DNA of 64,000 nt from an uncultured Desulfobacteraceae bacterium (GCA_964431545.1 CAYSLC010000003.1:449-64448); one strand, 5' to 3'. Positions 4,174 through 63,930 are shown, numbered from the stretch's first letter. Made by a program: numbers and translations. The notes: generated from the sequence alone by a model not told the origin.

Positions 4174-4272
4174 AAAGCCGTCGGGGAGGTTCGAGGCGGG
4201 AGAGCCGAACGGTATCGGGATCTCGGGGAGGTTGAGGCGGCAGGTGTGCTCCATTTTTTTCCTGTTCCGCTT

Positions 4273-7469: not shown

Positions 7470-7559
7470 ATGAAATTCTCCTCCAATAAAAAGTCCACAT
7501 AACATTTCTCAAACCAACATTTTGGTTAACGACACTACATAAAAACTCGCTTTTTGTCG

Positions 7560-7585
7560 ACGAAAATGCAACGAAAATGCAACGA
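7560..7585. promoter_or_regulatory. 11-bp tandem direct repeat upstream of the ankyrin gene (possible regulator site)
   Basis: ACGAAAATGCA x2 + ACGA, about 90 bp upstream of ATG 7469 in an AT-rich intergenic stretch. Confidence 0.3.
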
Positions 7586-7742
7586 GGTTTTCAAATGTGC
7601 TTCGTCGCGTCGGATTGCATCCCTCCACGGCTACGGCATATTGCGGTCGATGGGACGCGAGCCGGCGGTAAGGCTGCATGGCATAGGCGAATGGTCAAAG
7701 ATCGGCAAGGGATTGAACCAGTTTGGCAAAAAAACCAAGGCA

Positions 7743-9284: not shown

Positions 9285-9351
9285 ATGTTTCTCCGATCGC
9301 TGTTTTTGTTCCCAAACATTTTTTCCGCGTTGGCGGAAACCCCGACGAAGG

Positions 9352-9525
9352 GATGATCCGGCGGATCGAATCGATCGATCCCGGCGGTCTTCCCCCGGAT
9401 TGGGACGTCGCCGTCCGGTTGACCACCAAATAGCCGCCGACGGGCGTCCTCCGGCCTCCGCTACGGGGAGGTCGCCGTCACCCCTTGAAACGCAACCGGA
9501 ACAGCACCGCGTAGAGCACCGGCAC
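9352..9525. repeat. Right copy of the ~170-bp imperfect direct repeat
   Basis: Carries a copy of the cyclase 3' end (MIRRIESIDPGGLPPDWDVAVRLTTK*) followed by the true RND permease 3' end. Confidence 0.85.
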
Positions 9526-41907: not shown

Positions 41908-44900
41908 TCATTCCTCGCGCACCGCCTCGTCCGCGCGCCGGGCCAGGCGGAACCCGAAATCATCGCTGCGGACCTCGGGGGAGCCCTGGCGGCGGAAGGT
42001 CGTCCGGCAGTACTCGGCCCCGAAGATCCACGAGCCGCCCCGCAGGACCCGGTCCGGGCCCCTGGGTTGCCGGACCCAGGGGCCGCCGTCTTCGGGGGCG
42101 CCCTCGTAGTTTCCGTGCCAGTCGTCCTCCACCCACTCCCAGACGTTGCCGTGCATGTCGTAGAGCCCCCAGTCGTTGGGGGCCTTCCCGCCCACGGGGC
42201 GGAGCTGGTCCCCGGAGTTCTTCCGGTACCAGGCGGCCCGGTCGAGGTCCTCTTCCGCATCGCCGGTGTTGTACCGCGTCGACGTCCCGGCCCGGCAGGC
42301 GTACTCCCACTGGGCCTCGGAGGGCAGTGCCAGGCCGGCCCATTCGGCGAACCGCCGGGCGTCGTGCCAGCTCACGCCCACCACCGGCTGTTTCGGCTGG
42401 TTGAAGCTCCGGTCGCTCCAGGACCGGGGCTCCTCCATGGCCGGATGGGCCGCCAGGAACCGGCCGTACTCCTCGTTGGTGACCGGGTACCGCCCCAGGT
42501 AGAAGGGCGCCACCCGCACCGGGTGGGCGGGTCCCTCCCAGTCGAAGCGCCCCGCCTCGGAGGGCGGTGATCCCATGGTGAAGGTCCCTCCCGGGATCAG
42601 GACCATCTCGTACCCCACCGATTCCGAACGGAACATCTCCTGGGATTGCTGGTCCCGGCGCGCCTCCACCCACCGCCGGATGGTCTCGGAGGTGTGCTTG
42701 AGCAGCTTCGGCATCAGCCGGTCCACCGCCGCCCTGTCGATCCGCTCCAGGATGTGGAGGGCCACGTTCTGTCGCTCCCACATCTCCAGATCCTCCCCGG
42801 GATGGATCTCCAGAAGCTTGATGAACGGTTCGGAGGAGATCTCCGTCGCCTCGTCCAGGCACAATTCCACCAGATCCCGGTGGTCGGCGAAGGCGGGGCG
42901 CTTCACCAGCTCCCGCATGAAGGGGACCATGAGGGAGGGCTCCTCCTGGAGGGCCAGCAGCAGCAGGATCACCTCCTGCCACCACGGCTCGCCGAAGCGG
43001 GCCGCCAGGTCCCGGATCACCCGCCGGTCCTCGAAGTAGGTCCGGCGGATCTCCCGGGCCGCGAGATACTCCTGGAACCCGAGGTGCATGAAGCCGTAGC
43101 TGTCCTGATCCCAGCCGGTGAGCAGGCCGCTTTCGTCCCGGACCGCAGACAGAAACGACTCCGCCGCCCCGTGCTCCCACCCCACGGCCCGGAGGGCCGG
43201 TTCCATGACGGGGGCCAGCTCCCCGGCCGTGGCCCTTGTTCGCCCCTCCCGCTCGTGGAGCCAGAGGGCCACCGGCTGGAGCACCCGCCGGCCGGTCCGG
43301 GCGGTCACCTTCGACGGGAACCCGATGGCACCGCGCCAGAGTTCCAGCAGCACCTCGATGCACTCCTCGTAGAGGCGGGCCCGGCTCCGGGGCAGATAGC
43401 CCCGGTCCCGGTGGACCAGGCAGAGGTTGGCCAGCAGCAGCGGGTTCCGGGTCATGGCGAAGACCCGGCGGGCCCGGAACTGGGTTCCCCGGAGCCGCGC
43501 CAGGAGGTCGTCCGCCTTCTCCCGGGCGATCACCGCCGCCTGGTCGGTGTCGGAGGATAGGCCCGTCTCCACGCTCCGGTACCAGTTGTGGATGAAAATC
43601 TCTGCCTGATCCGCGGACAAAGGCCGCATGTGCATCTCCAGAAACGCCTCGCCGAGGCGGGCCTCGGCGGTATACCCGGCGAACCTGGAGGTGACCACGA
43701 ACCGGCACGACCCGTGGACCCGCATCGCCTCGTCGATCCATCGGGAGACCTGGACCCGCTGACCGGGCTCCGCCACCTCGTCCAGGCCGTCGAAGAGGAG
43801 AAGGAGATCTCCCCGGTCCAGGAGACGCTTCCCGAACCCGTCGGGGGTGCCCAGGTGGGGGTGGTCGAGCTGGGCCTGGATGAAGGCGTCGAGGCCCCGG
43901 CCGAGGTCCCGCAGCTCCCGCAGGGGGAGAAAGACGGGGAGCGTGTCCACCGGAAGGCCCAGGTCGGCCCACCCGCCTTCCAGACACCAGAGCATCAGGC
44001 GCCGCAGGTGGGTCGTCTTTCCCGATCCGGGGTCCCCGAGGATCACCACTCCCCGCCGTCCCAGGCGGTCGGCCTCCCGGAAGGCGTCGGGCACGGAGAT
44101 CTCGATGCCCGCGCCGCACTCCCCAAGCCGCTTCTCCGCGTCCTCGGAGTCGGCGAAGCAGGCATCCCCCGTGGCCCGGAGATCGACCATGGCCCGCAGG
44201 GGCACGTAGACATCGGCGATGCGGATCGGCGCCCGCAGCCGCGTCTTGAAGCCGACCACCGGGAGATACTCGTGGAGGGAGCGGACCTTTCCCACATAGG
44301 CGTCGATGGCGGCCTTCGGAACGGGGTCGGCCGGGGCGGGCCGGACCGCCGCGACGCCGTCCGTCCCCGCCGATTCCGGCTCCCCCGATTCCGACCCCGA
44401 CGGCTCCGGTTCGGCTCCAGGGGACACGGGCTCCGGGGACCAGTCCCCCAGATCGATGACGTACCTCGGCAGCGGGTCCTTCCCCTTGCCCCGGGTCCAG
44501 ATGGCGTCCGGCCCCCAGGCCCCGTGGAGTTCCCGCCGGCAGCGGGTCTCCACCGTCAGCCGGCCCCGGGTGAACCGGAGGAGGTTGTACTGGAGGGGGT
44601 GGCCCGGGGTCCACTCCTTGACCGGCGCGCCGAAGGTCCCGGCGCCGATGGTGTGGATCGACCGGCCGTCCGCCGTGACGTCGTAGGCGTACTGCCCCTT
44701 CTCCGCCTTGTGGATGTGGCCGTGGAGGGCCAGGCGGAACCCGGCCCCGGCCAGCCGTTCCATGAACCCGTGGTCGGTGATCCGGTCCTCGAAGGGACTG
44801 ATGAGCGGATGGTGGAAGACCGCCAGCTTCAGGCACCCCTCGAATCTGGCCCTTTCCCCGCGGATGGCGCCCAGGGCCGTGCCCACCGCTTCAGGATGGA

Positions 44901-46095
44901 TGGCGGCCCGGGATCGGAAGTGGTGGTCGAGGTTCCAGGCGGAATTGAAGCCGAGGATCAGCAGGTTGCAGGCGGGCAGGTGGTGGAGGACGGCCTGCTC
45001 CGGATAGTCGAGGGGGTACGCGATCCCCTTCACCGTCTCGTGGAACCGGCTGAACTCGGCGAACCGGTTTCGGTAGGCCGCCTCGTTCCGGACCCGGAGG
45101 ACATCCTCCCCCACCCGGATGATCCGCGCCTCGTCCGGCTCTTCATCGACGTCGGCCAGGTCGACCAGGTCGTACCCCTTCCGGGCCAGCCGCCAGTTGA
45201 GGTCGTGGTTGCCGGGGACCATGACCAGCCGGGACGGATCGAGATCGAACTCGGCGAAGACCGCCTCCAGAAAGCGCCGGGCCGCGGCGTACTCGTCCGG
45301 TTCCGACCGGGTGGCGATGTCGCCGGAGAGGATCAGCCCGTCGAGGCGATCGACATCGAGGCCGCCGGCGAGGTCCTCGGCCAGTTGGTTGAACCAGTTG
45401 ACGGCGTCCCCGTCGGTGCCGAAGTGGAGATCGGACAGATGGAGGAGCGTGACGGTCCCTTCCGGCCCCGGCTTGTCCACGCCCCGGCCGCCGGCCGAGG
45501 CCCTTTCCGATATCCGGCCCGGCTCTCCGATATCTTCGGGTCCGTGCGGTCCCTGGAAGCTTTGACCCGGCGTCCCGGTGGTCCCGGCCTGGACCACCCC
45601 CCGGGCGGCATCGGCGCGGATCGAGGAGGTAGTGGGCCGGGGGACGGGCGTCGAGCCTTCAGGCGGCCCCCCCTCCCCCTCGATCCGCCGGGCCGTCCGC
45701 AAGGCCCAGAGGATCTTGGCCAGCCCGTCCTCGTAAGCGGGGAAGAGATCCACCCAGTGGAGGGCCGAAAGGCGCGGGTCGAGGGAGGTGCACTCGTCGA
45801 CGCGGACGGGGATCAGGAAGATCTCGTCCGGGGGAAACTCGTCGAGCACGTCCAGGGCCGTCTTCAACTCCTTCTGGACGTACCCCCGCTTGGAGAGGGA
45901 TCGGGAGGAGAGGAGCGCCAGGACGCTTCCGCTCTCCCGGATAGTCCGGGTGATGGTGGCCCGCCAGTTCTGGCCGGGCATCAGGTCCGCGTCGTCCATC
46001 CAGGGGACGAGGCCGGCGTCCGCGAGATCCTGGTAGAGCCGCCGGGCCGTCTCCAGATCCTCCCTGCCGTAGCTGATAAACACCCGATGGTTCAT
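41908..46095 (-). CDS. NLR-like protein: TIR - calcineurin-like metallophosphoesterase - NACHT - FGE-sulfatase (SUMF1) domain, 1395 aa
   Basis: TIR: VFISYGRED...VQKEL. MPE: SDLHFG/SGD/PGNHD/HHP/HGHIH. NACHT: GDPGSGKT, LLFDGLDEV, VTSR. FGE: GLYDMHGNVWEW, RGGSW...GFRL. Confidence 0.92.
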   Translation of the reverse strand: MNHRVFISYGREDLETARRLYQDLADAGLVPWMDDADLMPGQNWRATITRTIRESGSVLALLSSRSLSKRGYVQKELKTALDVLDEFPPDEIFLIPVRVDECTSLDPRLSALHWVDLFPAYEDGLAKILWALRTARRIEGEGGPPEGSTPVPRPTTSSIRADAARGVVQAGTTGTPGQSFQGPHGPEDIGEPGRISERASAGGRGVDKPGPEGTVTLLHLSDLHFGTDGDAVNWFNQLAEDLAGGLDVDRLDGLILSGDIATRSEPDEYAAARRFLEAVFAEFDLDPSRLVMVPGNHDLNWRLARKGYDLVDLADVDEEPDEARIIRVGEDVLRVRNEAAYRNRFAEFSRFHETVKGIAYPLDYPEQAVLHHLPACNLLILGFNSAWNLDHHFRSRAAIHPEAVGTALGAIRGERARFEGCLKLAVFHHPLISPFEDRITDHGFMERLAGAGFRLALHGHIHKAEKGQYAYDVTADGRSIHTIGAGTFGAPVKEWTPGHPLQYNLLRFTRGRLTVETRCRRELHGAWGPDAIWTRGKGKDPLPRYVIDLGDWSPEPVSPGAEPEPSGSESGEPESAGTDGVAAVRPAPADPVPKAAIDAYVGKVRSLHEYLPVVGFKTRLRAPIRIADVYVPLRAMVDLRATGDACFADSEDAEKRLGECGAGIEISVPDAFREADRLGRRGVVILGDPGSGKTTHLRRLMLWCLEGGWADLGLPVDTLPVFLPLRELRDLGRGLDAFIQAQLDHPHLGTPDGFGKRLLDRGDLLLLFDGLDEVAEPGQRVQVSRWIDEAMRVHGSCRFVVTSRFAGYTAEARLGEAFLEMHMRPLSADQAEIFIHNWYRSVETGLSSDTDQAAVIAREKADDLLARLRGTQFRARRVFAMTRNPLLLANLCLVHRDRGYLPRSRARLYEECIEVLLELWRGAIGFPSKVTARTGRRVLQPVALWLHEREGRTRATAGELAPVMEPALRAVGWEHGAAESFLSAVRDESGLLTGWDQDSYGFMHLGFQEYLAAREIRRTYFEDRRVIRDLAARFGEPWWQEVILLLLALQEEPSLMVPFMRELVKRPAFADHRDLVELCLDEATEISSEPFIKLLEIHPGEDLEMWERQNVALHILERIDRAAVDRLMPKLLKHTSETIRRWVEARRDQQSQEMFRSESVGYEMVLIPGGTFTMGSPPSEAGRFDWEGPAHPVRVAPFYLGRYPVTNEEYGRFLAAHPAMEEPRSWSDRSFNQPKQPVVGVSWHDARRFAEWAGLALPSEAQWEYACRAGTSTRYNTGDAEEDLDRAAWYRKNSGDQLRPVGGKAPNDWGLYDMHGNVWEWVEDDWHGNYEGAPEDGGPWVRQPRGPDRVLRGGSWIFGAEYCRTTFRRQGSPEVRSDDFGFRLARRADEAVREE

Positions 46096-46334
46096 GCGAA
46101 TGATCCCGTGGTCGGTCGGCGTGTCCGTGGGGTTTCTCTCGTCGTCCCGACATACCATCCACTCGGAGAAATGGCAATAGCCGGCCGGCCCCTCTTTTTC
46201 CCTTGCATCGGGTTCCCTCCGGGGCTATGGTTCATGGATAGTCGGCCTTGGAGCATCGGATCCACACCAGCCAATGGGTTCGGTCGGACCGCCGGACCGA
46301 ACCGGGGAAACGGCCGGACAGGGGAGCGCGGGCC

Positions 46335-47523: not shown

Positions 47524-49638
47524 TTATTTGCTGCTGAAGACGGTCACCGGATCCCACTCCTGATCCCCGGTGATCCCGCAGCACGCTTCCAGCCGTTCCA
47601 GGTAGAGCCGGGACGGCCCGTCGGCCGGGTTCCCCTCCAGCACACGCCGGAAGGCCCGGGCCGCCCCCTCCCACTCCCTTTTGCGGTAGAGCGCCAATCC
47701 GGCCTCGAAGTCGTCCACCATTGAGAGGGTCTCCGGGGCCGCATCCTCCCTGCGCCCCAGCAGCTCGAAAAGGTCGACCGCCTCCGCCCTTCCCTTGACC
47801 CGGACCCGGTCCAGCTCCCGGAGCAGAAACCGCCGGTCCAGCCGGGCGGCGGTGGACCCGGAGACGATGATCTCCGTGCCGTAAACCTTGTTCAAGCCCT
47901 CCAGGCGGGAGGCGAGGTTGACGGCGTCCCCGATCACCGTATAGTCCATGAAATCGTTGCTGCCCAGGTTCCCCACCGTGACCACCCCCGTGTTGATGCC
48001 GATGCCGAGCCGCAGGGAATCGATCCCCTCCACGGCCGCCTCCCCGCGAAGCTCGCGGAGCCGGCGGAGCATATGGACGGCCGCCTCGGCGGCCTGGGCG
48101 GGATGGTCCTCGACATCCACCGGCGCACCGAAGAACGCCATGATGGCGTCGCCGATCAACTTGTCCAGGGTGCCCCGATGCTGGAACACGATGGGGACCA
48201 TGTTGGAGAAATAGTGGTTGAGGAGCAGGCCCGTCCCCTTGGCGCCCAGGCGCTCGGAGATGGTGGTGAATTTCCGCAGATCGGAAAACAGGATGGTCAG
48301 CTCCTTGTGGCGCCCTTCCAGGTCGAGGTCGAGGTTGCCGCTGATCAGCTCCTCCACAACGCCGTAGGAGACGTACCGGCCGAACAGGGAGGTGACGAAG
48401 GAAGCCCGCCGCTGCTCGAAGATCTTCTGGGTGATCACCCCGCCGAGGTACTGGAGGCCCAGCACGGCCATGAGGGGCGCCGTGGGAATCCAGAGCCGTT
48501 TGTTCAGAAAAGCCAGATGGCCCATCCAGACCACCAGGCCGAGGCTCAGGAGAAGAAACACCGCGGCGCCGATCATGCCGAACCGGGGCAGGTAGAAGAG
48601 GACCCCGAGGATCCCCAGGAGCACGATCAGGGTCCGGACGAACGGCAACGAGAGCTTCCGGATAAACGCTCCGGAGAGCATGGTCTCCACCGCGTGGGCG
48701 TGGCAGGCGACCCCCAGTTCCTTGGCGCCGAGAACATCCCGCACGACGCTGCCGAAGATCTCCTTGTATTCGTCCGTGGGTTTCAGGAACCGGGTGTAGG
48801 GGGTGCTGAAGATATCCTTCTCGGTGGCGAGACTGCTGCCGAGGATCACCAGCTTCCCCCGGACCGCCTCCGGTGGGAAGTCGTCTTTCACAACGTCCAG
48901 AAAAGAGAGGATCGGAAAGATGCGGTGGTCTCCGCGGTAATCGATGATCAGCTCGGGATAGGGGATCAGCAGTTGTGAGGGGCCTTCCCGGCCCACGGCC
49001 AGGTGGTCCTCTCCGGAGAAATCGAAGGTGAAGTCGATATTGAGATAGGTTCTGGCAAGCTCCAGGGAAAAAGCGGGAAGGAGTTCCAGGTTTCCGTCGG
49101 ACAGCGGCTTGGCGTGGAGATACCGGACCCGTCTCAGGATCTCATCCTCGTCGAGGAAAAAATCGATGAATCCGTCTCCGATCATCGCCTCCTGGAAGGT
49201 GGGGATGGAGACCAGCTCCCCGCCGTAGGCGGAGGTGCCCCGGGCCAGGACCACGTTGTTGCACCGGTCCATGGCCGCGGCAAGCCCCCGGTCGGCGGTC
49301 GGATCGGGGTCCGGGGCCAGGAAGATCATGTCCATGCCGATGATTTCGGCGCCGGCCTCGCAGAGATGGTTCAGGGCCAGGGCCATGTGGCGCCGGGACC
49401 AGGAGGCCTTCTCCCGGCCCAGGGCCACGGCGCTCTCCTGGTCCATGAGCACCAGCACCACCTCCCCCGACGGCGCCGTCCGCCCCCGCCATTTGAAATG
49501 GAGGTCGAAGAGATACCCGTCGACCCACCGGAAGAGCCCCACCCGATGGCCCAGGAGAATCAACGCCACCACCGCCAGGGTGCACAGGGCGGAGGCGGCG
49601 ATCTGTACCCGATCGGTGCGGCCGTTTCGGGGGCTCAT
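47524..49638 (-). CDS. CHASE2-domain class III adenylate/guanylate cyclase
   Basis: N-terminal TM, CHASE2, 3 TM, then FSDLRKFT, DKLIGDAIMA, GINTG, DYTVIGDAVNLASRLEG. Confidence 0.93.
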   Translation of the reverse strand: MSPRNGRTDRVQIAASALCTLAVVALILLGHRVGLFRWVDGYLFDLHFKWRGRTAPSGEVVLVLMDQESAVALGREKASWSRRHMALALNHLCEAGAEIIGMDMIFLAPDPDPTADRGLAAAMDRCNNVVLARGTSAYGGELVSIPTFQEAMIGDGFIDFFLDEDEILRRVRYLHAKPLSDGNLELLPAFSLELARTYLNIDFTFDFSGEDHLAVGREGPSQLLIPYPELIIDYRGDHRIFPILSFLDVVKDDFPPEAVRGKLVILGSSLATEKDIFSTPYTRFLKPTDEYKEIFGSVVRDVLGAKELGVACHAHAVETMLSGAFIRKLSLPFVRTLIVLLGILGVLFYLPRFGMIGAAVFLLLSLGLVVWMGHLAFLNKRLWIPTAPLMAVLGLQYLGGVITQKIFEQRRASFVTSLFGRYVSYGVVEELISGNLDLDLEGRHKELTILFSDLRKFTTISERLGAKGTGLLLNHYFSNMVPIVFQHRGTLDKLIGDAIMAFFGAPVDVEDHPAQAAEAAVHMLRRLRELRGEAAVEGIDSLRLGIGINTGVVTVGNLGSNDFMDYTVIGDAVNLASRLEGLNKVYGTEIIVSGSTAARLDRRFLLRELDRVRVKGRAEAVDLFELLGRREDAAPETLSMVDDFEAGLALYRKREWEGAARAFRRVLEGNPADGPSRLYLERLEACCGITGDQEWDPVTVFSSK

Positions 49639-50657
49639 GGGGATCCCGTGGTCGCATCCGCAAAGAAAAAGGGCCCGCGCATCCCCTCGATCCCCCCCAG
49701 CGGGCTGTTGACCACGATGATCACCCGGCACTTTTTCAGGATCCTGGAGGAGACGTCCACCTTCTTCAGGTCCCTGGCATCCCCCTCGCTGACCACCAGG
49801 TTGGCCTTCATCAGCCCCTGGGCCGCCTTGACATCCTTCACCACATACTTCCGCCGTTTCCGGCGCCGGCTCCGATCCTGTTTCTCCTCCTTCCCCTCCT
49901 GGGCGATGGCGGGGGAGGGTCCGAGCCCGGACAGGACCCGATCGATCAGCCCCTCCAGATCGGACCGGTCCGCCCCCAGCCGGCCCGGTGGAAGGTCGGA
50001 GACGACGTACCGGGCCATCCCCCGCCGGGCCAGGGATTCCCGCCCCACCTCCTCGATACCGTAAACGGCCCGGCCGGCCTCATCCACCACCTGGGGGAAC
50101 AGGGCCGGGACGACCTCCTCGCCCCGGGCGTCGAGGACCAGCCAGGTCTCCGTCTCCGGTTCGGGCGCCGTCTCCGCCGACGGCTCGGGATAGGCTTCCC
50201 ACGCCACCCCGGCGGACCGGAAATGGTCGAGAAGCCTCGCGGTCAGCCCTTCGACCCCCTTGATGTCCGCCTTCCGGGTCACCTCGAAGTGAGGGCGGTC
50301 CGTCTCGCCCACGAACCGGTCCCCGGCCTCCTGGTACCGGATCAGGGCCCGCAGGTGGAGGGCGACCCGGCCGCCGCCCAGGCTCTTGACGGTCTCCCGG
50401 TCGTTGAGCCGGATGCCCGCCGCGAGCTTCAGAATCGACTGGAGGGCCGTGACCTGGGCCGCCCGGAAGGCGCGACCCTTATCGCCGCCGTTCCGGTCGA
50501 GGTACCCCTTGCCCACGCCGTAGATGACGCCGTCGTCCCAGTCGATCCGCCCGTCGGCGAAGGTCTCCACGAAAGGGGAGAACCGGTCCCCGGCATCGGC
50601 GGCCCGGCAGGGGAGCGTGAAACATACCAGCAGCAGGAGCAAGATTTGTTTTTGCAT
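49635..50657 (-). CDS. Secreted hypothetical protein (LPP20-like N-terminal region)
   Basis: Signal peptide MQKQILLLLLVCFTLPCRA. GRIDWDDG...RAAQV.A...I and LVLDARG...PALFP.V.DE.G motifs. Its stop overlaps the cyclase ATG. Confidence 0.75.
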   Translation of the reverse strand: MQKQILLLLLVCFTLPCRAADAGDRFSPFVETFADGRIDWDDGVIYGVGKGYLDRNGGDKGRAFRAAQVTALQSILKLAAGIRLNDRETVKSLGGGRVALHLRALIRYQEAGDRFVGETDRPHFEVTRKADIKGVEGLTARLLDHFRSAGVAWEAYPEPSAETAPEPETETWLVLDARGEEVVPALFPQVVDEAGRAVYGIEEVGRESLARRGMARYVVSDLPPGRLGADRSDLEGLIDRVLSGLGPSPAIAQEGKEEKQDRSRRRKRRKYVVKDVKAAQGLMKANLVVSEGDARDLKKVDVSSRILKKCRVIIVVNSPLGGIEGMRGPFFFADATTGSP

Positions 50658-50738
50658 GGCTTTATCCTCCTGAGGGTGGCGGGATCCATCATCCCTCACT
50701 TTTTATGGGAGATCCGTGTTTTTTGTCAAGGCGCCTTT

Positions 50739-50776
50739 TTCATCGAAATTTCACTTGTCCTTCGACATCTTTTCAT
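50739..50776 (+). promoter_or_regulatory. cre-tag-like array: four TTCA(C/T)-type pentamers at 11-bp period
   Basis: TTCAT-cgaaat-TTCAC-ttgtcc-TTCGA-catctt-TTCAT, 86 bp upstream of the VIT gene. The E. coli CreB site is TTCAC-N6-TTCAC. Confidence 0.6.
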
Positions 50777-50861
50777 CTGTGAAGGCGATGATGGGAGCCA
50801 AGAGAACGGAATCGAACGGTTCCCTTCGGATCTTTCACCTTTAATCCATAAGGAGGTCTTC

Positions 50862-52868
50862 ATGAAAACGACGGTGATGGCGATGGGCATGGTGCTGGCT
50901 TTGACCGCGACGGTCCCGGCCTATGGCGGGACGGCGGGGGATCGTACCCTCTCCCCCTACTTCTTCGTGGCGGGGGAGGACGCCGCCGTGGACCGGTTTC
51001 CCCTGCGCGACACCCAGGTGGCGGTCGAGATCAGCGGGGTGATCGCCCACGTGACGGTCCGTCAGGAGTATGTCAACGACGGCGCGACGGCGATCAACGC
51101 CCGGTACATCTTTCCGGGCTCCACCCGGGCCGCGGTCCACGGGATGAAGATGGTGGTCGGGGAACGGGTGATCACCGCCAGGATCGAGGAGAAGGAGGCG
51201 GCCCGACGGACCTTCGAGGCGGCCAAGCGGGCGGGCAAGCGGGCCTCCCTCCTGGAGCAACAGCGGCCCAACGTCTTCTCCATGGATGTGGCCAACATCA
51301 TGCCCGGCGATACCGTGGCGGTGGAACTCCGGTACACGGAGCTGCTGGTGCCCGAGGACGGCACCTATGAATTCGTCTATCCCACGGTTGTGGGGCCCCG
51401 ATATTCGAACATGCCCGAGGCCGGGGCACCGGCGGGCGAAAAATGGGTCAAGAACCCCTACCTCACCCCCGGCGCCGATCCCAAGACGACCTTCGACATC
51501 ACCGTCGGCCTCCATGCGGGCATGCCGCTCATGGACGCCACCTGCGCCTCCCACGAGACCGACATCACCTACGAGAGCCGGACCGAGGCGAAGGTCCGGC
51601 TGGCCGGGGGGTCGGAATTCGGGGGAGACCGGGACTTCATCCTCCGGTACCGGCTGGCCGACCGGAAGATCGCCTCGGGGCTCCTCCTCCAGGAGGGCGG
51701 GACGGAGAACTTCTTCCTCCTGATGGTCCAGCCGCCGGAGCGGGTGGCGGCCGCCGACATCCCGGACCGGGAGTACATCTTCGTGGTGGACGTCTCCGGC
51801 TCCATGAACGGCTTCCCCCTGGACACCGCCAAGACGCTTCTGCGGGACCTCATCGCCGGCCTCCGGACCACCGACCGGTTCAACGTGGTCCTCTTCGCCG
51901 GATCGTCCCGGACCCTGGCCGAGACCTCGCTGCCGGCGAGCCAGGCCAACGTGGACCGGGCCGTCCGGTTCATCGATGACCAGCGGGGGGGCGGGGGCAC
52001 CGAACTGCTCCGCGCCATGAACCGGGCCATGGCCCTGCCCCGGGCCGAGGGGGTCTCCCGGACCCTGGCGGTGGTGACCGATGGGTACATCCACGCGGAA
52101 CGGGAGGTCTTCGCCGCCATCCAGGAGAACCTCGGCGACGCCAACGTCTTCGCCTTCGGCATCGGGAGCAGCGTCAACCGGTTCCTCATCGAGGGGATGG
52201 CCCGATCGGGAGAAGGGGAGCCCTTCGTGGTGACCCGTCCGGCGGAAGCCCCGGCGGCCGCCGAGAAGTTTCGGTCGTACATCTCCGCCCCGGTCCTCGC
52301 CGGCATCGGGATCGACTTCGACGGATTCGACGCCTTTGACGTCTCCCCCCCGGCGATCCCCGACCTCTTCGCCCAACGGCCGGTGGTCGTGGTCGGCAAG
52401 TGGCGGGGGGAACGGGCCGGGACCATCCGGGTCACCGGAACCACGGGGGACGGCCCCTACCGCCGGGAGTTTCCCGTGGCGGAGACCGCCGTCGACCACA
52501 CCGACGGCGCCCTCCGGTACCTCTGGGCCCGGGACCGGATCGCCCGCCTCTCCGACTTCAACCCAAACAAAGGCAACCCGGAGAACCGGTCGGAGATCGT
52601 CTCCCTGGGGCTCACCTACAACCTGCTCACCGCCTACACCTCCTTTGTGGCGGTGGACGAGGTGGTGGCCAACCCGACGGGGGAAGCGGACGACGTCAAA
52701 CAGCCGCTGCCGCTGCCCAAGAACGTCTCGCCTTTGGCCGTGGGCGGCGGCATGTCGAGCGTGCCGGAGCCGGACCTCTATCTCCTGGCCGTCGCCGCCC
52801 TGGCGCTGATGCTCCTGGGCCGGTGGAAGCGGCTGTGGGGGACCCGGCGCCGGACGGAGAGATCATGA
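50862..52868 (+). CDS. Secreted VIT + VWA domain protein with PEP-CTERM sorting signal
   Basis: AGGAGG RBS, signal peptide, VIT domain, MIDAS DVSGS, C-terminal VPEP + TM + basic tail (RWKR..RRR). Confidence 0.92.
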   Translation: MKTTVMAMGMVLALTATVPAYGGTAGDRTLSPYFFVAGEDAAVDRFPLRDTQVAVEISGVIAHVTVRQEYVNDGATAINARYIFPGSTRAAVHGMKMVVGERVITARIEEKEAARRTFEAAKRAGKRASLLEQQRPNVFSMDVANIMPGDTVAVELRYTELLVPEDGTYEFVYPTVVGPRYSNMPEAGAPAGEKWVKNPYLTPGADPKTTFDITVGLHAGMPLMDATCASHETDITYESRTEAKVRLAGGSEFGGDRDFILRYRLADRKIASGLLLQEGGTENFFLLMVQPPERVAAADIPDREYIFVVDVSGSMNGFPLDTAKTLLRDLIAGLRTTDRFNVVLFAGSSRTLAETSLPASQANVDRAVRFIDDQRGGGGTELLRAMNRAMALPRAEGVSRTLAVVTDGYIHAEREVFAAIQENLGDANVFAFGIGSSVNRFLIEGMARSGEGEPFVVTRPAEAPAAAEKFRSYISAPVLAGIGIDFDGFDAFDVSPPAIPDLFAQRPVVVVGKWRGERAGTIRVTGTTGDGPYRREFPVAETAVDHTDGALRYLWARDRIARLSDFNPNKGNPENRSEIVSLGLTYNLLTAYTSFVAVDEVVANPTGEADDVKQPLPLPKNVSPLAVGGGMSSVPEPDLYLLAVAALALMLLGRWKRLWGTRRRTERS

Positions 52869-53638
52869 TGAAGGGGCCGAACCCAAAGACGGGCCGCCGG
52901 CTGGCGGCGGCCCTCCTCGCCTGCCTGACGGCCCTCGGGATCGCCTACGGGCTCAAGCGCCACTACAGTCGGGCCGGGGGGGAGGCGCTCGCCTGGATCC
53001 TCCGCCCCACGGCCGGGCTGGTGGAGATCCTCTCCGGCATCCCCTTCGAACCCGAAGGGGATGCCGGATACCTCAACCGGGAGCGCCGGGTCTTCATCGC
53101 CCCGGCCTGCGCCGGGGTCAACTTCCTGATCATCGCCTTCTGCGCGGCGGCCTTCTCCGGCGTTTTCCGGCTCCGGCGGCCGTCGTGGCGGTTCCTTTGG
53201 ATCGGGATCAGCCTCCTGTGGGCATACGCCGCGACCCTCTGGGTCAACGCCCTGCGGATCACGGCCTCCATCCACCTCTACGGCGCGGACATCTACGCCG
53301 GCGGGATCACCCCGGACCGGGTCCACCGGATCGGGGGGACGGCCCTCTACGTCCTCTTCCTCTTCGGGTTCCACCTCGGGATCCGCCGGCTCCTCGACCG
53401 GATCGCGCCGGAGGACGGCCGGGATCCGCCCCGGCGAAGGCTTCCCGCCGGGCTCGCCCCCCTCTTCTGGTACCTGGCGGTGGTCCTGGGGATCCCGCTT
53501 TTCACCGCCGCCTTCCGGGAGGATCCGGGACGGTTCACCGAACACGCCCTGATGGTGGTCGCGGTGAGCCTGGGGATCTGGGCCTTGACACTTCTGCTCG
53601 GATGGGGTTTGAAGCGGGGGAGAGCCGGTACGGGGTGA
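52865..53638 (+). CDS. xrtK: Exosortase K-type intramembrane transpeptidase
   Basis: LKRHYS.A....L.WILRPTA.LV, IAPACAGVNF (catalytic Cys), NALRI (Arg), VHRIGG (His). ATGA overlap with the VIT gene. Confidence 0.82.
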   Translation: MMKGPNPKTGRRLAAALLACLTALGIAYGLKRHYSRAGGEALAWILRPTAGLVEILSGIPFEPEGDAGYLNRERRVFIAPACAGVNFLIIAFCAAAFSGVFRLRRPSWRFLWIGISLLWAYAATLWVNALRITASIHLYGADIYAGGITPDRVHRIGGTALYVLFLFGFHLGIRRLLDRIAPEDGRDPPRRRLPAGLAPLFWYLAVVLGIPLFTAAFREDPGRFTEHALMVVAVSLGIWALTLLLGWGLKRGRAGTG

Positions 53639-53671
53639 AGCGCCGGCGTCAACCGCCAAAGGAGGTCGCCC

Positions 53672-54355
53672 ATGAAACCGAAGATCCTGATCGTGGAGGA
53701 TGAGCCGGCCATCGCCGACGCCATCCAGTACGCCCTGGAGACCGACGGCTTCGACACCGCCTGCCTCGCCGCCGGAGGGCCGGCCCTCCCCCTGCTGGCC
53801 GGGGAGCGGATCGACCTGGTGGTCCTCGACATCGGCCTGCCGGACGTAAACGGCATCGAACTGTGCAAGGAGATCCGGAAGACCTCCCAGGTGCCCGTGA
53901 TCTTTCTGACGGCCCGGTCCGACGAGATCGACCGGGTGGTGGGCCTGGAGATCGGGGGCGACGACTACGTCACCAAGCCCTTCAGCCCCCGGGAGCTGGC
54001 GGCCCGGGTCAAGGCGGTGCTCCGTCGGGTCCGGCCGGCGGCGGATCCCCCGGACCCGTCCCCGCCCCCCTTCGCCGTGGACGAGGCCAAGCGGCGGATC
54101 GCCTTCTTCGGGGTCCATCTCGACCTTTCCCGGTATGAATACAAACTCCTGACGGTCTTCATCCGGCGGCCGGGGCGGGTCTTCACCCGGGACAACCTCA
54201 TGGACCAGGCCTGGGACGAGCCCGAGGCGAGCATGGACCGGACCGTGGACGCCCACATCAAGAACCTCCGGGCCAAGCTCCGGGCGGTGCGTCCGGATCT
54301 CGACCCCATCGTCACCCACCGGGGGACGGGCTATTCCCTGCGGGAGGACCTATGA
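53672..54355 (+). CDS. creB: Response regulator CreB (OmpR family)
   Basis: ILIVEDEPAIADAIQYALETDGF, LDIGLPD, EIDRVVGLEIGGDDYVTKPFSPRE, DRTVDAHIK.LR.KLR, THRGTGYSL. Confidence 0.88.
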   Translation: MKPKILIVEDEPAIADAIQYALETDGFDTACLAAGGPALPLLAGERIDLVVLDIGLPDVNGIELCKEIRKTSQVPVIFLTARSDEIDRVVGLEIGGDDYVTKPFSPRELAARVKAVLRRVRPAADPPDPSPPPFAVDEAKRRIAFFGVHLDLSRYEYKLLTVFIRRPGRVFTRDNLMDQAWDEPEASMDRTVDAHIKNLRAKLRAVRPDLDPIVTHRGTGYSLREDL

Positions 54356-55797
54356 GGCTCGGCACCCGGATCTTCTTCTGCTACCTGGTGATCTTCGCCG
54401 TCTGCTTCGCCTCCCCCTTCAACTGGATCCTGGACACCCTCCGGATCCGGTACCTGGAGGGGGTGGAGGACCCCCTGGTGGACCAGGCGAACATCCTGGC
54501 CGCACGGGCGGGGATGGAGATGGCGGCGGACGCCTTCGACCCGGAGCGGTGGTACGCGCTCTTCGAGCGGATCTCGGCCCGTCCCCTCTCCGCCCGGATC
54601 TACAAGCTGACCAAGGAGTCGGTGGACCAGCGGATCTACATCACCGACGGGGCCGGGAGGATCGTCTTCGACTCCGACTCCCGGAAGACCCTGGGGGAGG
54701 ACTATTCCACCTGGCGGGACGTCCGCTTGACCCTGCGCGGGGAGTACGGGGCCCGGACGACGCTCCAGGACGAATCGGACCCCACCTCGTCGGTCCTCTA
54801 CGTGGCCGCCCCCATCCTCGTGGACGGCGCCGTCGCCGGCGTGCTGACGGTGGCCAAACCCACCACCAACATCAAGTACTTCCTCCAGAAAGCGAAACCC
54901 CAGTTCGCGGTGATCGGCCTGCTCTACCTGTCGGCCGCGGCCCTGTTGAGCTTCCTGGTCTCCTTTCTCCTCACCCGGCCCATCAGCCGGCTGACCCAAT
55001 ACGCCCGGGACATCCGGGACGGCAAGCGCCCCGAGTTCCCGAGGCTCGACAGCAGCGAGATCGGGGAGATGGGGGCCGCCTTCGGGGAGATGAAGGAGGC
55101 CCTGGAGGGCAAACGGTACGTGGAGCAGTACGTCCAGAACCTCACCCACGAGATCAAGAGCCCCCTGTCGGCGATCCGGGGGGCGGCGGAGCTGATGGCC
55201 GAGCCCATGGATCCGGACCGCCACGCCCGGTTTCTGTCCAACATCGACGCCGAGGCCCGGCGGATCCAGCGGATCGTCGACCGGATGCTGGAACTCTCGG
55301 CCCTGGAAAACCGAAAGAAGCTCCAAAAGGTGGAAACCGTCTCCCTTTCCACGCTGACCAGCACGGTCCTGGAGAGCAAGGAGCCGGCGGTTTCCAAAAA
55401 GCGGCTCACCGTGGTCCGGGAGATCCCCCGGGACCTGACGGTCCGGGGGGACGCCTTCCTGCTCCACCAGGCGGTCTCCAACCTGATCCAGAACGCCGTG
55501 GATTTCAGCCCGGAGGAGGGCCGGATCGTCCTGTCCGCCGAGACCGACGGCAAAACCCTCCGGTTCACCGTAACCGACGAGGGGCCCGGCGTGCCCCCCT
55601 ACGCCCTGGAGAAGATCTTCCACAAGTTCTTCTCCCTCCAGCGTCCCGACACCGGCAAGAAGAGCACCGGCCTCGGCCTCAACTTCGTCCGGGAGGTGGC
55701 GGTCCTGCACGGCGGCGGGGTGCGGCTGGAGAACCGGGAGGTGCAAGGGGTCCGGGCGGTGATGGAGATCGACGGCCACGTCCGGGCCGGGACTTGA
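54352..55797 (+). CDS. creC: Sensor histidine kinase CreC
   Basis: MRLGTRIF..Y, GVEDPLVD.AN.LA, DVRLTLRGEYGAR.T, LYVAAP, LTVAKP (CreC-type periplasmic motifs). H-box LTHEIKSP, GLGL. Confidence 0.9.
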   Translation: MRLGTRIFFCYLVIFAVCFASPFNWILDTLRIRYLEGVEDPLVDQANILAARAGMEMAADAFDPERWYALFERISARPLSARIYKLTKESVDQRIYITDGAGRIVFDSDSRKTLGEDYSTWRDVRLTLRGEYGARTTLQDESDPTSSVLYVAAPILVDGAVAGVLTVAKPTTNIKYFLQKAKPQFAVIGLLYLSAAALLSFLVSFLLTRPISRLTQYARDIRDGKRPEFPRLDSSEIGEMGAAFGEMKEALEGKRYVEQYVQNLTHEIKSPLSAIRGAAELMAEPMDPDRHARFLSNIDAEARRIQRIVDRMLELSALENRKKLQKVETVSLSTLTSTVLESKEPAVSKKRLTVVREIPRDLTVRGDAFLLHQAVSNLIQNAVDFSPEEGRIVLSAETDGKTLRFTVTDEGPGVPPYALEKIFHKFFSLQRPDTGKKSTGLGLNFVREVAVLHGGGVRLENREVQGVRAVMEIDGHVRAGT

Positions 55798-55900
55798 ATG
55801 GGGGGACGACCATCAGTGCGTCGAGATCGAAACCGTGGTCAGCTCACCAGCAAATCCGATGCCCGAAGGTCCGATCGATGCGATTTTTGCAACGGCTTCC

Positions 55901-55953: not shown

Positions 55954-56172
55954 ATGAGAACCGTTCTTTCCGTGAGTCTTCCGGAAAAATTGGCAAAGGA
56001 GCTGGATGTTTTCGCCGGAGAGATGGGGCGGAATAAAAGCGACATTCTGAGAGAGTCCCTGGGGCTCTATCTCTGGGAGGCGAAAATGCGCAAGGCGCGG
56101 CAGTTCTTCTATCCGAAAGCGAAAGCCGAGGGTTTTCTGACGGAGGAGGAGATGTTGGAACGTATCTCTTGA
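55954..56172 (+). CDS. CopG/RHH antitoxin
   Basis: MRTVLSVSLPEKLAKELD..A...GRNKSDILRESL. Confidence 0.85.
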   Translation: MRTVLSVSLPEKLAKELDVFAGEMGRNKSDILRESLGLYLWEAKMRKARQFFYPKAKAEGFLTEEEMLERIS

Positions 56173-56573
56173 ATGTGGTCTTGGACACGAATGTCTTGCT
56201 GTCCGCTTTTCTGACGGACGGCATTTGTGCGCGTATATTGAAGAGGGCTCGCCACCGTCAGCTCTCCTTCGTTCTTTGTGCTTCCGTGCTTCAGGAAACA
56301 AAAAGGCTGCTGGGAACCAAATTTTCACTCACGGAGAAGGAGATTGACTTTTTTGTTTCCCTCCTTTCGGAAGCCGCGGAGAAAGAGCACCATCCGGCAG
56401 GCGTTATTTCCGGCGTCTGTCGGGATCCGGATGATGACTGGGTCCTTCTTTGCGCCGTTGAGGCGGGTGCGGACTTTCTTGTAACCGGAGACAACGATCT
56501 TCTGGTATTGAATGAATATCGGAAAACGAAGATTCTGAGACCGAGGGGTTTTGAGTTGCTTTTCCGGGATTGA
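56169..56573 (+). CDS. PIN family toxin component
   Basis: VVLDTNVLLSA, CRDPDDD..L.CA....ADFLVTGDNDLL.L. TTGA overlap with the antitoxin. Confidence 0.9.
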   Translation: MNVVLDTNVLLSAFLTDGICARILKRARHRQLSFVLCASVLQETKRLLGTKFSLTEKEIDFFVSLLSEAAEKEHHPAGVISGVCRDPDDDWVLLCAVEAGADFLVTGDNDLLVLNEYRKTKILRPRGFELLFRD

Positions 56574-61411: not shown

Positions 61412-63930
61412 CCCCGGACGGGAATCGCCGCCGGCTGGCGTTCCAGATCTACACCGGCGTGGCCGGCGCCCTGATTCTCACGGGGGTGGTCTTCGGCGTC
61501 GCCTTCTACCTCATCGAGTCCCAGCGGTACGCCACCCTGGTGGAGACCGTGGCGCTTGCGGTGGACAGCATCGTGAAGGAGCACGAAACGGCCGTCGCCA
61601 ACGAGCTGTTCGTCCACCATCGGGAGGCCCTGGGGCTGATCGCCCTGGAGATGCGGGAGACCCGGGAGGTCATCGGCGTCACCATCCATGGACAGGACGG
61701 CCGGGTGCTGGTGGAATCGGTCGAGCCGGACCTCGCCGACCTCCGGTCCCGGATCGATCCCCCGGCCGCCGGGGCCCCCTATCAGGTCGAGCCCGGCCAC
61801 TTCCTGGACCGGCCCCTTCTGGTCTACACCCGGCCCATCATGATCATCGGAGAGCCCATGGGGTTCGTGCGGGTCTTCTACACCCTGGAGGCGATCCGGA
61901 ACAAGGCCCGACGCGCCGCGTTCCTCTTTCTGACCCTGTTTCTCGCGCTGCTTCTGGCGCTCTTCTTCATCATCCGGCACCTGCTGGACCGGCGCGTCAT
62001 CCGCCCGGTGGACGCCCTCCGACAGGGCATGGAGGCGGTCCGGGAAGGGGGGATGGGAAAGCAGATCGAGGGGATCGCCGAAAACGAGATCGGGGACCTG
62101 GCCCGGGCCTTCAACGAAATGTCCGGCACCAACGCCCGGATGTACCGGGAGCTTCGGGAGTTGAACGTTTCGCTGGAGCGGAAGGTGGCGGAGCGGACCG
62201 CCCAGGTGGAGAAGGCCAACCGGGCCAAAAGCCAATTTCTGGCCAACATGAGCCACGAGATCCGGACCCCCATGAACGCGGTACTCGGATTCGCCGAGAT
62301 CCTCCTGTCCAGAAGCCGGGATCCGGAGCACCGGAACTATCTGGAGACCATCCTGTCCAGCGGAAAAAGCCTGCTCACCCTCATCAACGACATCCTCGAC
62401 CTGTCCAAGATCGAGGCCGGCCGTCTGGAACTGTCCCGGGAGCCGGTGAACCTGGAGGGGCTGACCGCGGAAGTCCTCCGGATGTTCCGCCTCAAGGCCA
62501 AGGAGAAATCGATCGCCCTCGACGCCGAAATCTCTCCGGAGCTTCCCGAGTGGGTGGTCGGCGACGAGGTCCGCCTGCGCCAGGTGCTGATCAACCTGGT
62601 GGGAAACGCCGTCAAGTTCACCGACCAGGGCCGTGTGCGGCTGACCGTCCGCGGCGCGACCCCGGAGGAAGCCCGGACGCCGGCGTCCGTGGACCGGACC
62701 GCCGTGGTCTTCGAGGTGGCGGATACGGGCATCGGGATCTCCGTGGACCAGCAGGAGCGGATCTTCGACGCCTTCGAGCGGCAGAAGGACGCGGGCCGGG
62801 AGTCCGAGGGGACCGGGCTGGGGCTGGCCATCTCCGGGAAGCTGGTCGAAATGATGAACGGGGTCATCTCCGTGGAGAGCGGACCCGGGCGCGGCAGCCT
62901 GTTCCGGGTGATCCTGCGGGAGATGGCGGTGGCCGGCCGATCGTCCGGGCCGTCCCGCCGGGGATCGGCGGAATCCGGGACCCCGGTGGGGGAAGTCCTG
63001 TTCGAACCGGCCACCGTGCTGGTCACGGACGATGTTCGCACCAACCGGGAGCTGGTCCGGGCCTACCTCCGGGGGACCGGACTCACGGTGGCGGAGGCGG
63101 AGGACGGGGAGAAAGTCCTGGCCCTGTTCTCGTCCGGCGGCCCCCCCCCGGACCTGATCCTCATGGACCTTCGGCTTCCGGGGCTGGACGGCTACCAGCT
63201 CACGGAGATCCTGAAAAGCCGCGAACCGTCGCGCCGCGTCCCCGTCATCGCCTTCACCGCCCAGGCCATGACATCGGACCGGGAGAAGATCGCCACCCTC
63301 TTCGACGGATCCCTCTACAAACCCCTGGGACGGGAGGCTCTGGTGGCCGAATTGAAACGGTTCCTGCCGGTCCGGGGCGGGACGGGCGAAACCGCCCCGG
63401 GGGCCCACCGGGGGGTGGCGGCCCCGGGGGAGTCCGGGCCCCCCGCCCCGGAGCTTCGGGCGGCCCTGGAGGACGAGATGCTCCCCGCCTGGGAGGAGAT
63501 CGAGGATGTCTGTTATCTCGACGGGGTGGTCCGGTTCGCCGAGCGTCTGGGGGCGTTGGCGGACGCCCACGGGTCGGCGTCCCTGTCGGCCTATGCGGGG
63601 GAGCTGTCCCGCTGCGCCCACAACGTGCAGGTGGACGGCATGGAGCGGCTCATGGGGGCGTTCCCGGACCTGGTGGCATCGTTTCGGACCGCGGCCTCCA
63701 ATGGGGGGCGGCCGCTCATCCCGCCGCCCACCGACAACCTCCGGGAGCTGCGGCGGCTGGCCACGCTCGGCCTCATGGGCCGGGTGGAGGCGCACGCCAC
63801 GCGCCTGGCCGAGGCCGACGGCCGGTATCTGCCCTTTGCCGGCAGACTCCGGGCCCTGGCCCGGGATTTCGAGGACAGCCGGCTGATCGCCTTCATCGAC
63901 GGGTTCCTGGACGAGGGGGCGGCCTTGTGA
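61408..63930 (+). CDS. Membrane hybrid histidine kinase (TM-periplasmic-TM-HAMP-HisKA-HATPase-REC + helical Hpt-like tail)
   Basis: GTGA overlap start. KSQFLANMSHEIRTPMN, LINLVGNAVKFT, GTGLGLAI, receiver LILMDLRLP..KP. Confidence 0.9.
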   Translation: MTPDGNRRRLAFQIYTGVAGALILTGVVFGVAFYLIESQRYATLVETVALAVDSIVKEHETAVANELFVHHREALGLIALEMRETREVIGVTIHGQDGRVLVESVEPDLADLRSRIDPPAAGAPYQVEPGHFLDRPLLVYTRPIMIIGEPMGFVRVFYTLEAIRNKARRAAFLFLTLFLALLLALFFIIRHLLDRRVIRPVDALRQGMEAVREGGMGKQIEGIAENEIGDLARAFNEMSGTNARMYRELRELNVSLERKVAERTAQVEKANRAKSQFLANMSHEIRTPMNAVLGFAEILLSRSRDPEHRNYLETILSSGKSLLTLINDILDLSKIEAGRLELSREPVNLEGLTAEVLRMFRLKAKEKSIALDAEISPELPEWVVGDEVRLRQVLINLVGNAVKFTDQGRVRLTVRGATPEEARTPASVDRTAVVFEVADTGIGISVDQQERIFDAFERQKDAGRESEGTGLGLAISGKLVEMMNGVISVESGPGRGSLFRVILREMAVAGRSSGPSRRGSAESGTPVGEVLFEPATVLVTDDVRTNRELVRAYLRGTGLTVAEAEDGEKVLALFSSGGPPPDLILMDLRLPGLDGYQLTEILKSREPSRRVPVIAFTAQAMTSDREKIATLFDGSLYKPLGREALVAELKRFLPVRGGTGETAPGAHRGVAAPGESGPPAPELRAALEDEMLPAWEEIEDVCYLDGVVRFAERLGALADAHGSASLSAYAGELSRCAHNVQVDGMERLMGAFPDLVASFRTAASNGGRPLIPPPTDNLRELRRLATLGLMGRVEAHATRLAEADGRYLPFAGRLRALARDFEDSRLIAFIDGFLDEGAAL

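Follow-up and report, generated by a model that had tools for sequence, protein, structure and literature searches.

An XrtK-class exosortase, a VIT-VWA protein with a PEP-type tail and CreBC in one conserved cassette: a probable sense-and-display operon

Introduction

The gene creD is the classic target of the CreBC two-component system, and a creBC pair that stands beside quite different genes and without creD raises the question of what it controls. Such a pair is present in a stretch of 64,000 nucleotides (nt; 64 kb) from an uncultured Desulfobacteraceae bacterium (GCA_964431545.1 CAYSLC010000003.1:449-64448), the whole of which is referred to here as the window. A preliminary description of this DNA placed creB and creC behind a gene for a VIT-VWA protein with a PEP-CTERM-like tail and a gene for an exosortase resembling exosortase K (XrtK). 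It proposed an envelope-stress module in which a private exosortase anchors one surface protein as the CreBC output, instead of creD. The analysis reported here indicates that the four genes probably form a self-contained and horizontally spread "sense-and-display" operon, in which CreBC drives the surface display of a VIT-VWA protein processed by the exosortase.

Gene arrangement in the window

The four genes are co-directional on the plus strand and occupy positions 50862-55797 (Table 1). The ATG of the exosortase gene overlaps the stop codon of the VIT-VWA gene as ATGA, the ATG of creC overlaps the stop codon of creB in the same manner, and creB starts 33 nt past the end of the exosortase gene. 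A promoter and terminator scan predicted no terminator-like sites between the four genes, which together with the ATGA overlaps and the short gaps fits a single operon. A consensus scan found no sigma-70 promoter within or ahead of the cassette, and the two promoter-like sites that it did give are both located past creC; judged from the sequence, the missing consensus would fit an activator-dependent promoter, without being proof of one. Searches of the window by tblastn with E. coli CreD and CreA and with a deltaproteobacterial-type CreD detected neither creD nor creA. The particulars of the preliminary description, including the gene set and its coordinates, the ATGA coupling, the intact Cys/Arg/His residues of the exosortase and the absence of creD from the window, were all confirmed. 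Sequence near-identical to positions 50600-55900 is also present in public metagenome and metatranscriptome runs from a hypersaline lake, marine sediment and marine samples, and the host is therefore an uncultured bacterium of saline sediment.

Conservation of the cassette across genomes

Related loci were surveyed with one genome per species. The survey gave 80 loci, of which 78 could be evaluated for synteny by tblastn of the loci with the four proteins of the window. The cassette occurs in many sediment and soil bacteria. The hosts of the 80 loci belong to the Desulfobacterota, Acidobacteriota (mostly Thermoanaerobaculia), Binatia, Myxococcota, Moduliflexus-like bacteria, Chitinispirillaceae and Eisenbacteria, and a cultured carrier with a complete genome is Desulfosarcina widdelii PP31 (locus L034). 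A homologue of the VIT-VWA protein (52-69% identity) is encoded directly upstream of the exosortase gene and on the same strand in all 78 evaluable loci. The creB-creC pair lies directly downstream of the exosortase gene in 66 of them, counting L071 with its overlapping genes, and it is downstream on the opposite strand in L050, so that creBC is adjacent in 67 of 78. The linkage of creBC to the VIT-VWA and exosortase genes, on which the preliminary description relied, is thus kept in other genomes, and the synteny test failed to refute it. All-against-all clustering of open reading frames (ORFs) revealed no further conserved gene family around the cassette, including exopolysaccharide (EPS) genes and acceptor-making enzymes, and none of the genes flanking the cassette in the window recurs beside it in other loci. 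In addition, the identities of the four proteins to those of the window co-vary across loci (Spearman rho 0.38-0.79). The four-gene arrangement is far beyond chance, since gene order and orientation recur in most of the 80 loci from other genomes. Conserved synteny, the lack of other conserved neighbours and the co-varying identities together indicate that the four genes have travelled between phyla as one unit.

The statement that the cassette stands "instead of creD" holds at the level of the locus, as no creD was found in the window or near the cassette in 79 of the 80 loci. As a general rule it does not hold. In L021 (9855-13202), which alone among the 80 loci has creD nearby, the cassette creC is followed by a gene for an ankyrin-repeat protein of 628 amino acids (aa) and, about 2 kb downstream of the cassette, by a gene for a genuine CreD (PF06123, 543 bits); L017, a relative of L021, has a CreD-like fragment of 19 aa (13012-13068). 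Because L021 has both the cassette and CreD after the same creBC, the cassette and creD are not mutually exclusive. These results bear on the reading in which the cassette is a specific envelope-stress or beta-lactam response, with the VIT-VWA protein and XrtK replacing CreD as the CreBC effector. In Pseudomonas and Aeromonas, loss of PBP4 elicits a response of CreBC/BlrAB, and among the targets of CreBC the strongest is creD. This background, the orthology of CreBC by curated models and the rarity of creD near the cassette favour such a response, while the true CreD of L021 behind the same creBC argues against it, as do the silence of the sequence on the stimulus and the report that the cue of E. 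coli CreC is metabolic or unknown (PMC3962086). The stress trigger named in the preliminary description has no support here, as the sequence carries no bearing on the stimulus, and a specific stress response is considered unlikely.

The exosortase and its predicted target

The exosortase scored 100.8 bits against the XrtK model TIGR04287 (cut-off 55), and it also passed the superfamily models TIGR04178 (35.2 bits, cut-off 23) and PF09721 EpsH (31.6 bits, cut-off 25.7). The catalytic candidates Cys82, Arg131 and His154 are invariant in an alignment of 35 homologues. An AlphaFold2 model of the protein is all-helical, with a predicted local distance difference test (pLDDT) score of 93.3, and neither its fold nor its sequence has a meaningful neighbour in the PDB. 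The conserved C-terminal region extends about 80 aa past the 163-position TIGR04287 model, and a two-helix extension at the C-terminus carries a conserved PLxWY...RFxEH motif. Homologues of the protein were detectable in 79 cases with 30-53% identity, the nearest being only 53% identical, and many of them have been named "exosortase K" by JGI or NCBI. Exosortase K is defined in NCBIfam/TIGRFAMs by an adjacent MSEP-CTERM target (TIGR04286) in Bacteroidota. The adjacent VIT-VWA protein gave no match to TIGR04286 at E <= 10, and the host phyla of the relatives are not Bacteroidota. Membership in the canonical XrtK/MSEP-CTERM system was rejected, the target being a VPEP-tailed VIT-VWA protein and not an MSEP-CTERM protein. 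The most fitting description of the enzyme is that of an XrtK-class exosortase belonging to a distinct system.

The N-terminus of the VIT-VWA protein, MKTTVMAMGMVLALTATVPAYG, resembles a signal peptide. Pfam places a VIT domain at aa 48-158 (PF08487, 116.9 bits) and a VWA domain at aa 306-457 (VWA_3, PF13768, 69.6 bits), the latter carrying the metal-ion-dependent adhesion site (MIDAS) D310-x-S-x-S; a VIT domain ahead of a MIDAS-bearing VWA domain is the arrangement of ITIH and vault-like proteins. Its sequence relatives in the PDB are PARP4 (5e-26), ITIH4 (1e-20) and ITIH1. The protein ends in SSVPEPD followed by LYLLAVAALALMLLG and RWKRLWGTRRRTERS, a tripartite tail of VPEP, 15 hydrophobic residues and an Arg/Lys-rich end that has the layout of PEP-CTERM signals; the sole PEP-CTERM match for this tail was a weak one to NF038129 (E 0.1, aa 626-654). 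The consensus of the C-terminal region is QPLPLPxGVSNLAVGG (more generally QPLPLPxGVSxLAVGG)...(V)PEP[EGD][LM], followed by a helix and basic residues. The (V)PEP[EGD][LM] motif with a transmembrane segment and a basic tail was found in nearly all of the 77 related loci with a readable C-terminus, and the same (V)PEP-type tail was present in all 120 listed best protein homologues. Six-frame pattern scans revealed no other PEP-type tail in the window, and no other convincing one in the 1.3 Mb made up of the window and the 80 loci with their flanks.

Haft and colleagues have defined a dedicated system as one enzyme with one target (PMC3237569; bioRxiv 10.1101/2023.06.07.544157). The private exosortase proposed in the preliminary description is borne out by the adjacency of the VIT-VWA gene in 78 of 78 loci, by the conserved (V)PEP tail and by the lack of a second such tail in the 1.3 Mb. 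These features support an enzyme that would be private to the VIT-VWA protein, which may be its single target in each genome. It is also conceivable that the exosortase-like protein has another role and does not process the tail, which would then be a membrane anchor only. This reading draws on the lack of a listed match of the tail to the generic PEP-CTERM model at E <= 10 and on the putative nature of processing by XrtK enzymes. The adjacency in every evaluable locus, often with overlapping codons, the strict conservation of the motif, helix and basic tail, and a parallel sortase/LPQTG twin (see below) all argue for processing, and the co-variation and the strict adjacency make a non-processing enzyme extremely improbable.

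CreBC and the predicted operator

The creB product scored 321 bits against NF008296 (cut-off 273), and the creC product 573 bits against NF008312 (cut-off 356) with alignment over positions 1-474 of 477. CreB is 49% identical to E. coli CreB, and its DNA-binding C-terminus with the recognition region is strongly conserved. Over its full length, CreC shares 38% identity with its E. coli counterpart, and it has a periplasmic sensor, HAMP, HisKA and HATPase domains in Pfam. The 162-nt region upstream of the VIT-VWA gene contains the array TTCAT-cgaaat-TTCAC-ttgtcc-TTCGA-catctt-TTCAT, in which four half-sites follow each other with an 11-bp period (TTCAT at 50739, TTCAC at 50750, TTCGA at 50761 and TTCAT at 50772). 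It holds the sole exact TTCAY-N6-TTCAY of the window on either strand. The cre tag is reportedly (Avison et al. 2001) a TTCAC direct repeat with a 6-nt spacer. The creD gene of E. coli K-12 has an exact TTCAC-N6-TTCAC, TTCACCGTCACTTCAC, 62 nt upstream of its ATG. The array of the window and the E. coli creD repeat have equal half-sites and equal spacing, and the array would qualify as a cre tag at the level of sequence. CreB has been reported to bind the cre tag (PMC3962086, PMC7873081).

Exact TTCAY half-sites in register were counted in 67 loci within 250 nt of the VIT start codon. At least two were found in 53 of these loci, at least three in 25 and a perfect four in 22; among 10,105 background windows from the same loci, 10 had two sites and none had three. 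With mismatches allowed, 54 of 72 loci scored at least 17 of 20. The array mostly starts about 90-145 nt upstream of the ATG, and farther in a few loci. It is present in 49 of the 57 loci that have adjacent creBC, and L006, L019 and L057 retain it despite having no adjacent creBC. A weak -10-like GATGAT that has no -35 element lies 10 nt past the last half-site of the window, a spacing that may reflect the geometry of PhoB/OmpR-type activation. The data support direct control of the operon by CreB at the predicted operator, probably in the direction of activation, and since creBC are the last genes of the operon, CreB would also control its own synthesis (autoregulation). The claim of the preliminary description that the operon is the output of CreBC gains support from the conserved four-site TTCAY array, which matches the E. 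coli creD repeat in half-site and spacing.

Two close relatives with a different regulator type, L033 and L036, have TGTCAT-type 11-bp repeats instead of TTCAY. Since these two loci switch regulator and repeat jointly, regulator and operator change together. The repeats also bear on the idea that the TTCAY array is bound by another OmpR/PhoB-family regulator such as PhoB, with the adjacency of creBC being a coincidental hitch-hiking. The Pho box is an 11-bp direct repeat as well, with CTGTCAT repeats that are two positions off TTTTCAT, and the occurrence of TGTCAT-type repeats in loci with another regulator type lends this idea some weight. It is countered by the array in 49 of 57 loci bearing creBC, by the identity of half-site and spacing with E. 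coli creD and by the paired switch of repeat type and regulator in L033 and L036. Given the co-variation and the strict adjacency of the genes, another regulator is very doubtful.

The leader RNA of the VIT gene in the window is not unusually structured (z = -0.16). In L041 (7770-7860), L047 (7925-8018) and other Thermoanaerobaculia, the VIT leader contains a hairpin with the Shine-Dalgarno sequence in its 3' arm, CUCCUUGGCAAG...CUUGCCAAGGAGG, with a minimum free energy of -42.7 kcal/mol (z = -5.8); this hairpin is not present in the leader of the window. It may be a translational control or an RNA-stabilising element. The same loci have two TTCAT sites followed by an inverted GTGAAC.

Relation to known surface-sorting and regulatory systems

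Haft and Varghese (2011, PMC3237569) have described a proteobacterial dedicated sortase system consisting of a class GN sortase (TIGR03784), its target (TIGR03788), a histidine kinase (TIGR03785) and a response regulator (TIGR03787). The top family match of the VIT-VWA protein of the window is this target family, the marine proteobacterial sortase target TIGR03788, with 437 bits, which is below the equivalog cut-off of 551.65; the alignment covers profile positions 2-597 of 629 and ends before the LPXTG tail. The cassette and the sortase system share the target family, the pairing of one enzyme with one adjacent target, the target-then-enzyme order and the ATGA overlap, and in both of them the tail is tripartite (motif, helix, basic cluster) and an OmpR-type two-component system is attached. 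They differ in that the enzyme of the cassette is a polytopic membrane exosortase with Cys/Arg/His, the motif is VPEP and not LPXTG, the two-component system is of the CreBC class, and the hosts are mainly Desulfobacterota and Acidobacteriota. No sortase domain was found in the adjacent enzyme with TIGR03784 and Pfam, and CreC and CreB of the window reached 127 bits on TIGR03785 (cut-off 612) and 133 bits on TIGR03787 (cut-off 336), respectively. Membership in the dedicated sortase system was rejected in view of the missing sortase and LPXTG motif, the TIGR03788 score below the cut-off and the other kinase and regulator families. In its way of working the cassette resembles that system.

A sortase version is carried by plasmid pSA2 of Novosphingobium resinovorum (L083), where a gene for a VIT-VWA target of 715 aa, about 33% identical to that of the window, ATGA-overlaps a class GN sortase gene; the target ends in LPQTG, a helix and RRRAA. 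L036 (4847-10708) and the near-identical L033 are hybrids: next to the genes for a VIT-VWA-VPEP protein and an XrtK-class exosortase, and transcribed divergently from them, are genes for a kinase and a regulator, and the TGTCAT-type repeats lie in the intergenic region shared by the two sets. The L036 kinase has its best match to TIGR03785 (470 bits, full 703 positions) and the regulator to TIGR03787 (299 bits). By these sequence relationships, the cassette is the exosortase/PEP-tail counterpart of the dedicated sortase/LPXTG/two-component cassette. The sortase analogue was missed by the preliminary description, and it makes the cassette a swap of the sorting enzyme rather than a new invention. 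The attendance of a two-component system on both the sortase version and the hybrid L036 suggests a functional tie between target and kinase, and VWA/MIDAS domains bind ligands. The processed surface protein might accordingly be a co-sensor or ligand trap upstream of CreC, with the real regulon elsewhere. The conserved CreB-type array directly before the VIT gene argues that the VIT-VWA protein would be at least an output, and a co-sensor would be compatible with the sense-and-display operon as a feedback loop; taken as a replacement for that operon, it is quite improbable.

The cassette resembles the XrtK/MSEP-CTERM system of Bacteroidota in passing the XrtK cut-off and in having one enzyme and one adjacent target, and it differs in the VIT-VWA/VPEP partner, the other lineages, the extra C-terminus of about 80 aa and the attached CreBC. 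The likeness to creABCD of E. coli lies in CreB and CreC scores above the equivalog cut-offs and in a TTCAY direct repeat in the same 11-bp register. Unlike in creABCD, neither creA nor creD is present at the locus, so that the enterobacterial neighbourhood with creA upstream and creD downstream is lacking, the regulated genes lie upstream within the same operon (autoregulation), and the array has four half-sites compared with the two of the E. coli creD promoter.

Other anchoring devices have also been described on VIT-VWA proteins. Among bacterial "vault homologues", tails of the GlyGly-CTERM and LPXTG kinds have been noted, and a PEP-CTERM tail in Verrucomicrobium spinosum (PMC3237569). A further version is present on plasmid NZ_CP134698.1 of Pontibacter sp. 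G13 (L082, 6421-11115), which encodes a protein of 1564 aa annotated as a SusC/RagA TonB-linked receptor. The first ~640 aa of this protein are a VIT-VWA module that is 50% identical to that of the window and keeps QPLPLPxGVxNxAVG, and a TonB-receptor Plug and barrel begin exactly at the position of the VPEP tail of the window protein. The GlyGly-CTERM/rhombosortase, V. spinosum PEP-CTERM and Pontibacter fusion versions have the same VIT-VWA module on interchangeable C-terminal anchoring devices, and they lack the private XrtK-class enzyme plus CreBC of the cassette. The V. spinosum protein is one target of a many-target exosortase. Fusion to an outer-membrane barrel in Pontibacter points to an outer-membrane or surface destination of the module, and by analogy attachment to the outer envelope appears to be the common denominator of the variants. 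Eukaryotic ITIH heavy chains and PARP4 share the VIT plus VWA architecture, which is detectable by sequence. The ITIH heavy chains undergo cleavage close to the C-terminus and covalent transfer onto a glycan, by a processing machinery that is unrelated to that of the cassette.

Proposed mechanism and significance

In the proposed mechanism, the membrane kinase CreC, which belongs to the family of E. coli CreC, would sense a periplasmic or metabolic cue and phosphorylate CreB. Phosphorylated CreB (CreB~P) would bind the four TTCAY half-sites just upstream of the weak -10 element and activate transcription of vit-xrt-creB-creC, which would amplify itself by positive feedback. Sec would export the VIT-VWA protein, whose C-terminal helix would for a time keep it in the inner membrane. 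The exosortase, translated together with it, would then cleave at the VPEP motif with its Cys/Arg/His residues; by analogy with sortases and other exosortases, it would attach the C-terminus so formed to an acceptor in the envelope and thereby place a metal-dependent (MIDAS) binding module on the outer surface.

Several observations weigh against this mechanism. About 14% of the loci have no adjacent creBC, and L044, L056, L070 and L075 have neither adjacent creBC nor the array, so that the target/exosortase pair can work under other control. The third half-site of the window, TTCGA, is degenerate. The tail of the VIT-VWA protein has no match to the generic PEP-CTERM model TIGR02595 at E <= 10, a result to be read with the ease with which short models are lost to HMMER filters, and PDB searches found no solved exosortase structure for a comparison of active sites. 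Metatranscriptome contigs from hypersaline lake and marine samples contain the locus, with an even, low depth that extends through both flanks and over both strands; this coverage may be DNA carry-over and is uninformative on regulation or operon limits.

Literature searches within the searchable library found no papers on exosortase K, MSEP-CTERM or this cassette, and none on a sortase-VIT link in Shewanella. In public annotation the parts of the cassette are named separately. The swapping of sorting signals on VIT-VWA proteins has already been published (PMC3237569). What appears to be new is the dedicated cassette of an XrtK-class enzyme and CreBC, its wide spread over phyla, the conserved four-site CreB operator and the hybrid with sortase-system regulators. 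Exosortases are widespread, and their chemistry, acceptors and products are poorly known, partly since for most of them the substrates number in the dozens. The operon in the cultured D. widdelii PP31, which has a perfect four-site array, joins a single enzyme to a single substrate and a regulator of its own, and is a compact, tractable and rare model. The CreBC family, whose signal and purpose are unclear even in E. coli, gains a conserved dedicated output with a clear predicted operator. The occurrence of the VIT-VWA module on a sortase, rhombosortase, exosortase or outer-membrane barrel shows that C-terminal sorting systems are interchangeable and that surface anchoring is the conserved requirement.

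A more speculative possibility, which can be held only tentatively, is an inducible device for covalent coating of the surface. A CreC signal would prompt synthesis of a single VIT-VWA protein, whose new C-terminus the private exosortase would move onto a lipid or glycan of the outer envelope, as a bacterial counterpart of ITIH transfer. Depending on the lineage, the same module would be plugged into a sortase, rhombosortase or exosortase, or fused directly to a TonB receptor. If true, this would provide the first one-substrate model of exosortase chemistry and the first defined dedicated output of the CreBC family outside enterobacteria.

Other features of the window

The features of the cassette and of its neighbours in the window are collected in Table 1.

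Table 1. Positions of the cassette, its signals and the neighbouring genes in the window
Feature	Position	Strand	Remarks
VIT-VWA surface protein gene	50862-52868	+	668 aa; Pfam and TIGR03788 matches
XrtK-class exosortase gene	52865-53638	+	257 aa; TIGR04287 and TIGR04178 matches
creB, OmpR/PhoB-family response regulator	53672-54355	+	NF008296 match; own Shine-Dalgarno sequence
creC, sensor histidine kinase	54352-55797	+	NF008312 match and Pfam domains
C-terminal sorting signal	52761-52865	+	VPEP aa 634-637, hydrophobic helix 639-653, basic cluster 654-668
Array of four CreB-type half-sites	50739-50776	+	proposed CreB~P site; read from sequence
Possible -10 hexamer GATGAT	50787-50792	+	tentative, from sequence
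Shine-Dalgarno AAGGAGG of the VIT-VWA gene	50850-50856	+	read from sequence
CHASE2-adenylate/guanylate cyclase	47524-49731	-	cassette neighbour, not conserved there elsewhere
Secreted 354-aa protein, no Pfam match	49635-50699	-	neighbour, divergent from the VIT gene, not conserved elsewhere
PIN-domain protein	56169-56573	+	cassette neighbour, not conserved there elsewhere

A second histidine-kinase-like region at 61969-62880 (plus strand) is 26-27% identical to the catalytic half of CreC and is unrelated to the cassette. An ORF of 1416 aa at 41908-46158 (minus strand) is, by eye, a multidomain NTPase-like protein reminiscent of defence or signalling STAND proteins. By the same inspection its N-terminus is TIR-like, it contains a metallophosphoesterase motif (LSDLHFG) and, in a NACHT-like core, a P-loop (GDPGSGKT), and its C-terminal region resembles the formylglycine-generating-enzyme/sulfatase-modifying family. 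The G+C content is 53-60% at positions 1-10000 of the window, about 60% at 14-18, 28-32 and 56-58 kb, and 64-72% elsewhere, and the stretches of low G+C may reflect mosaic or horizontally acquired segments.

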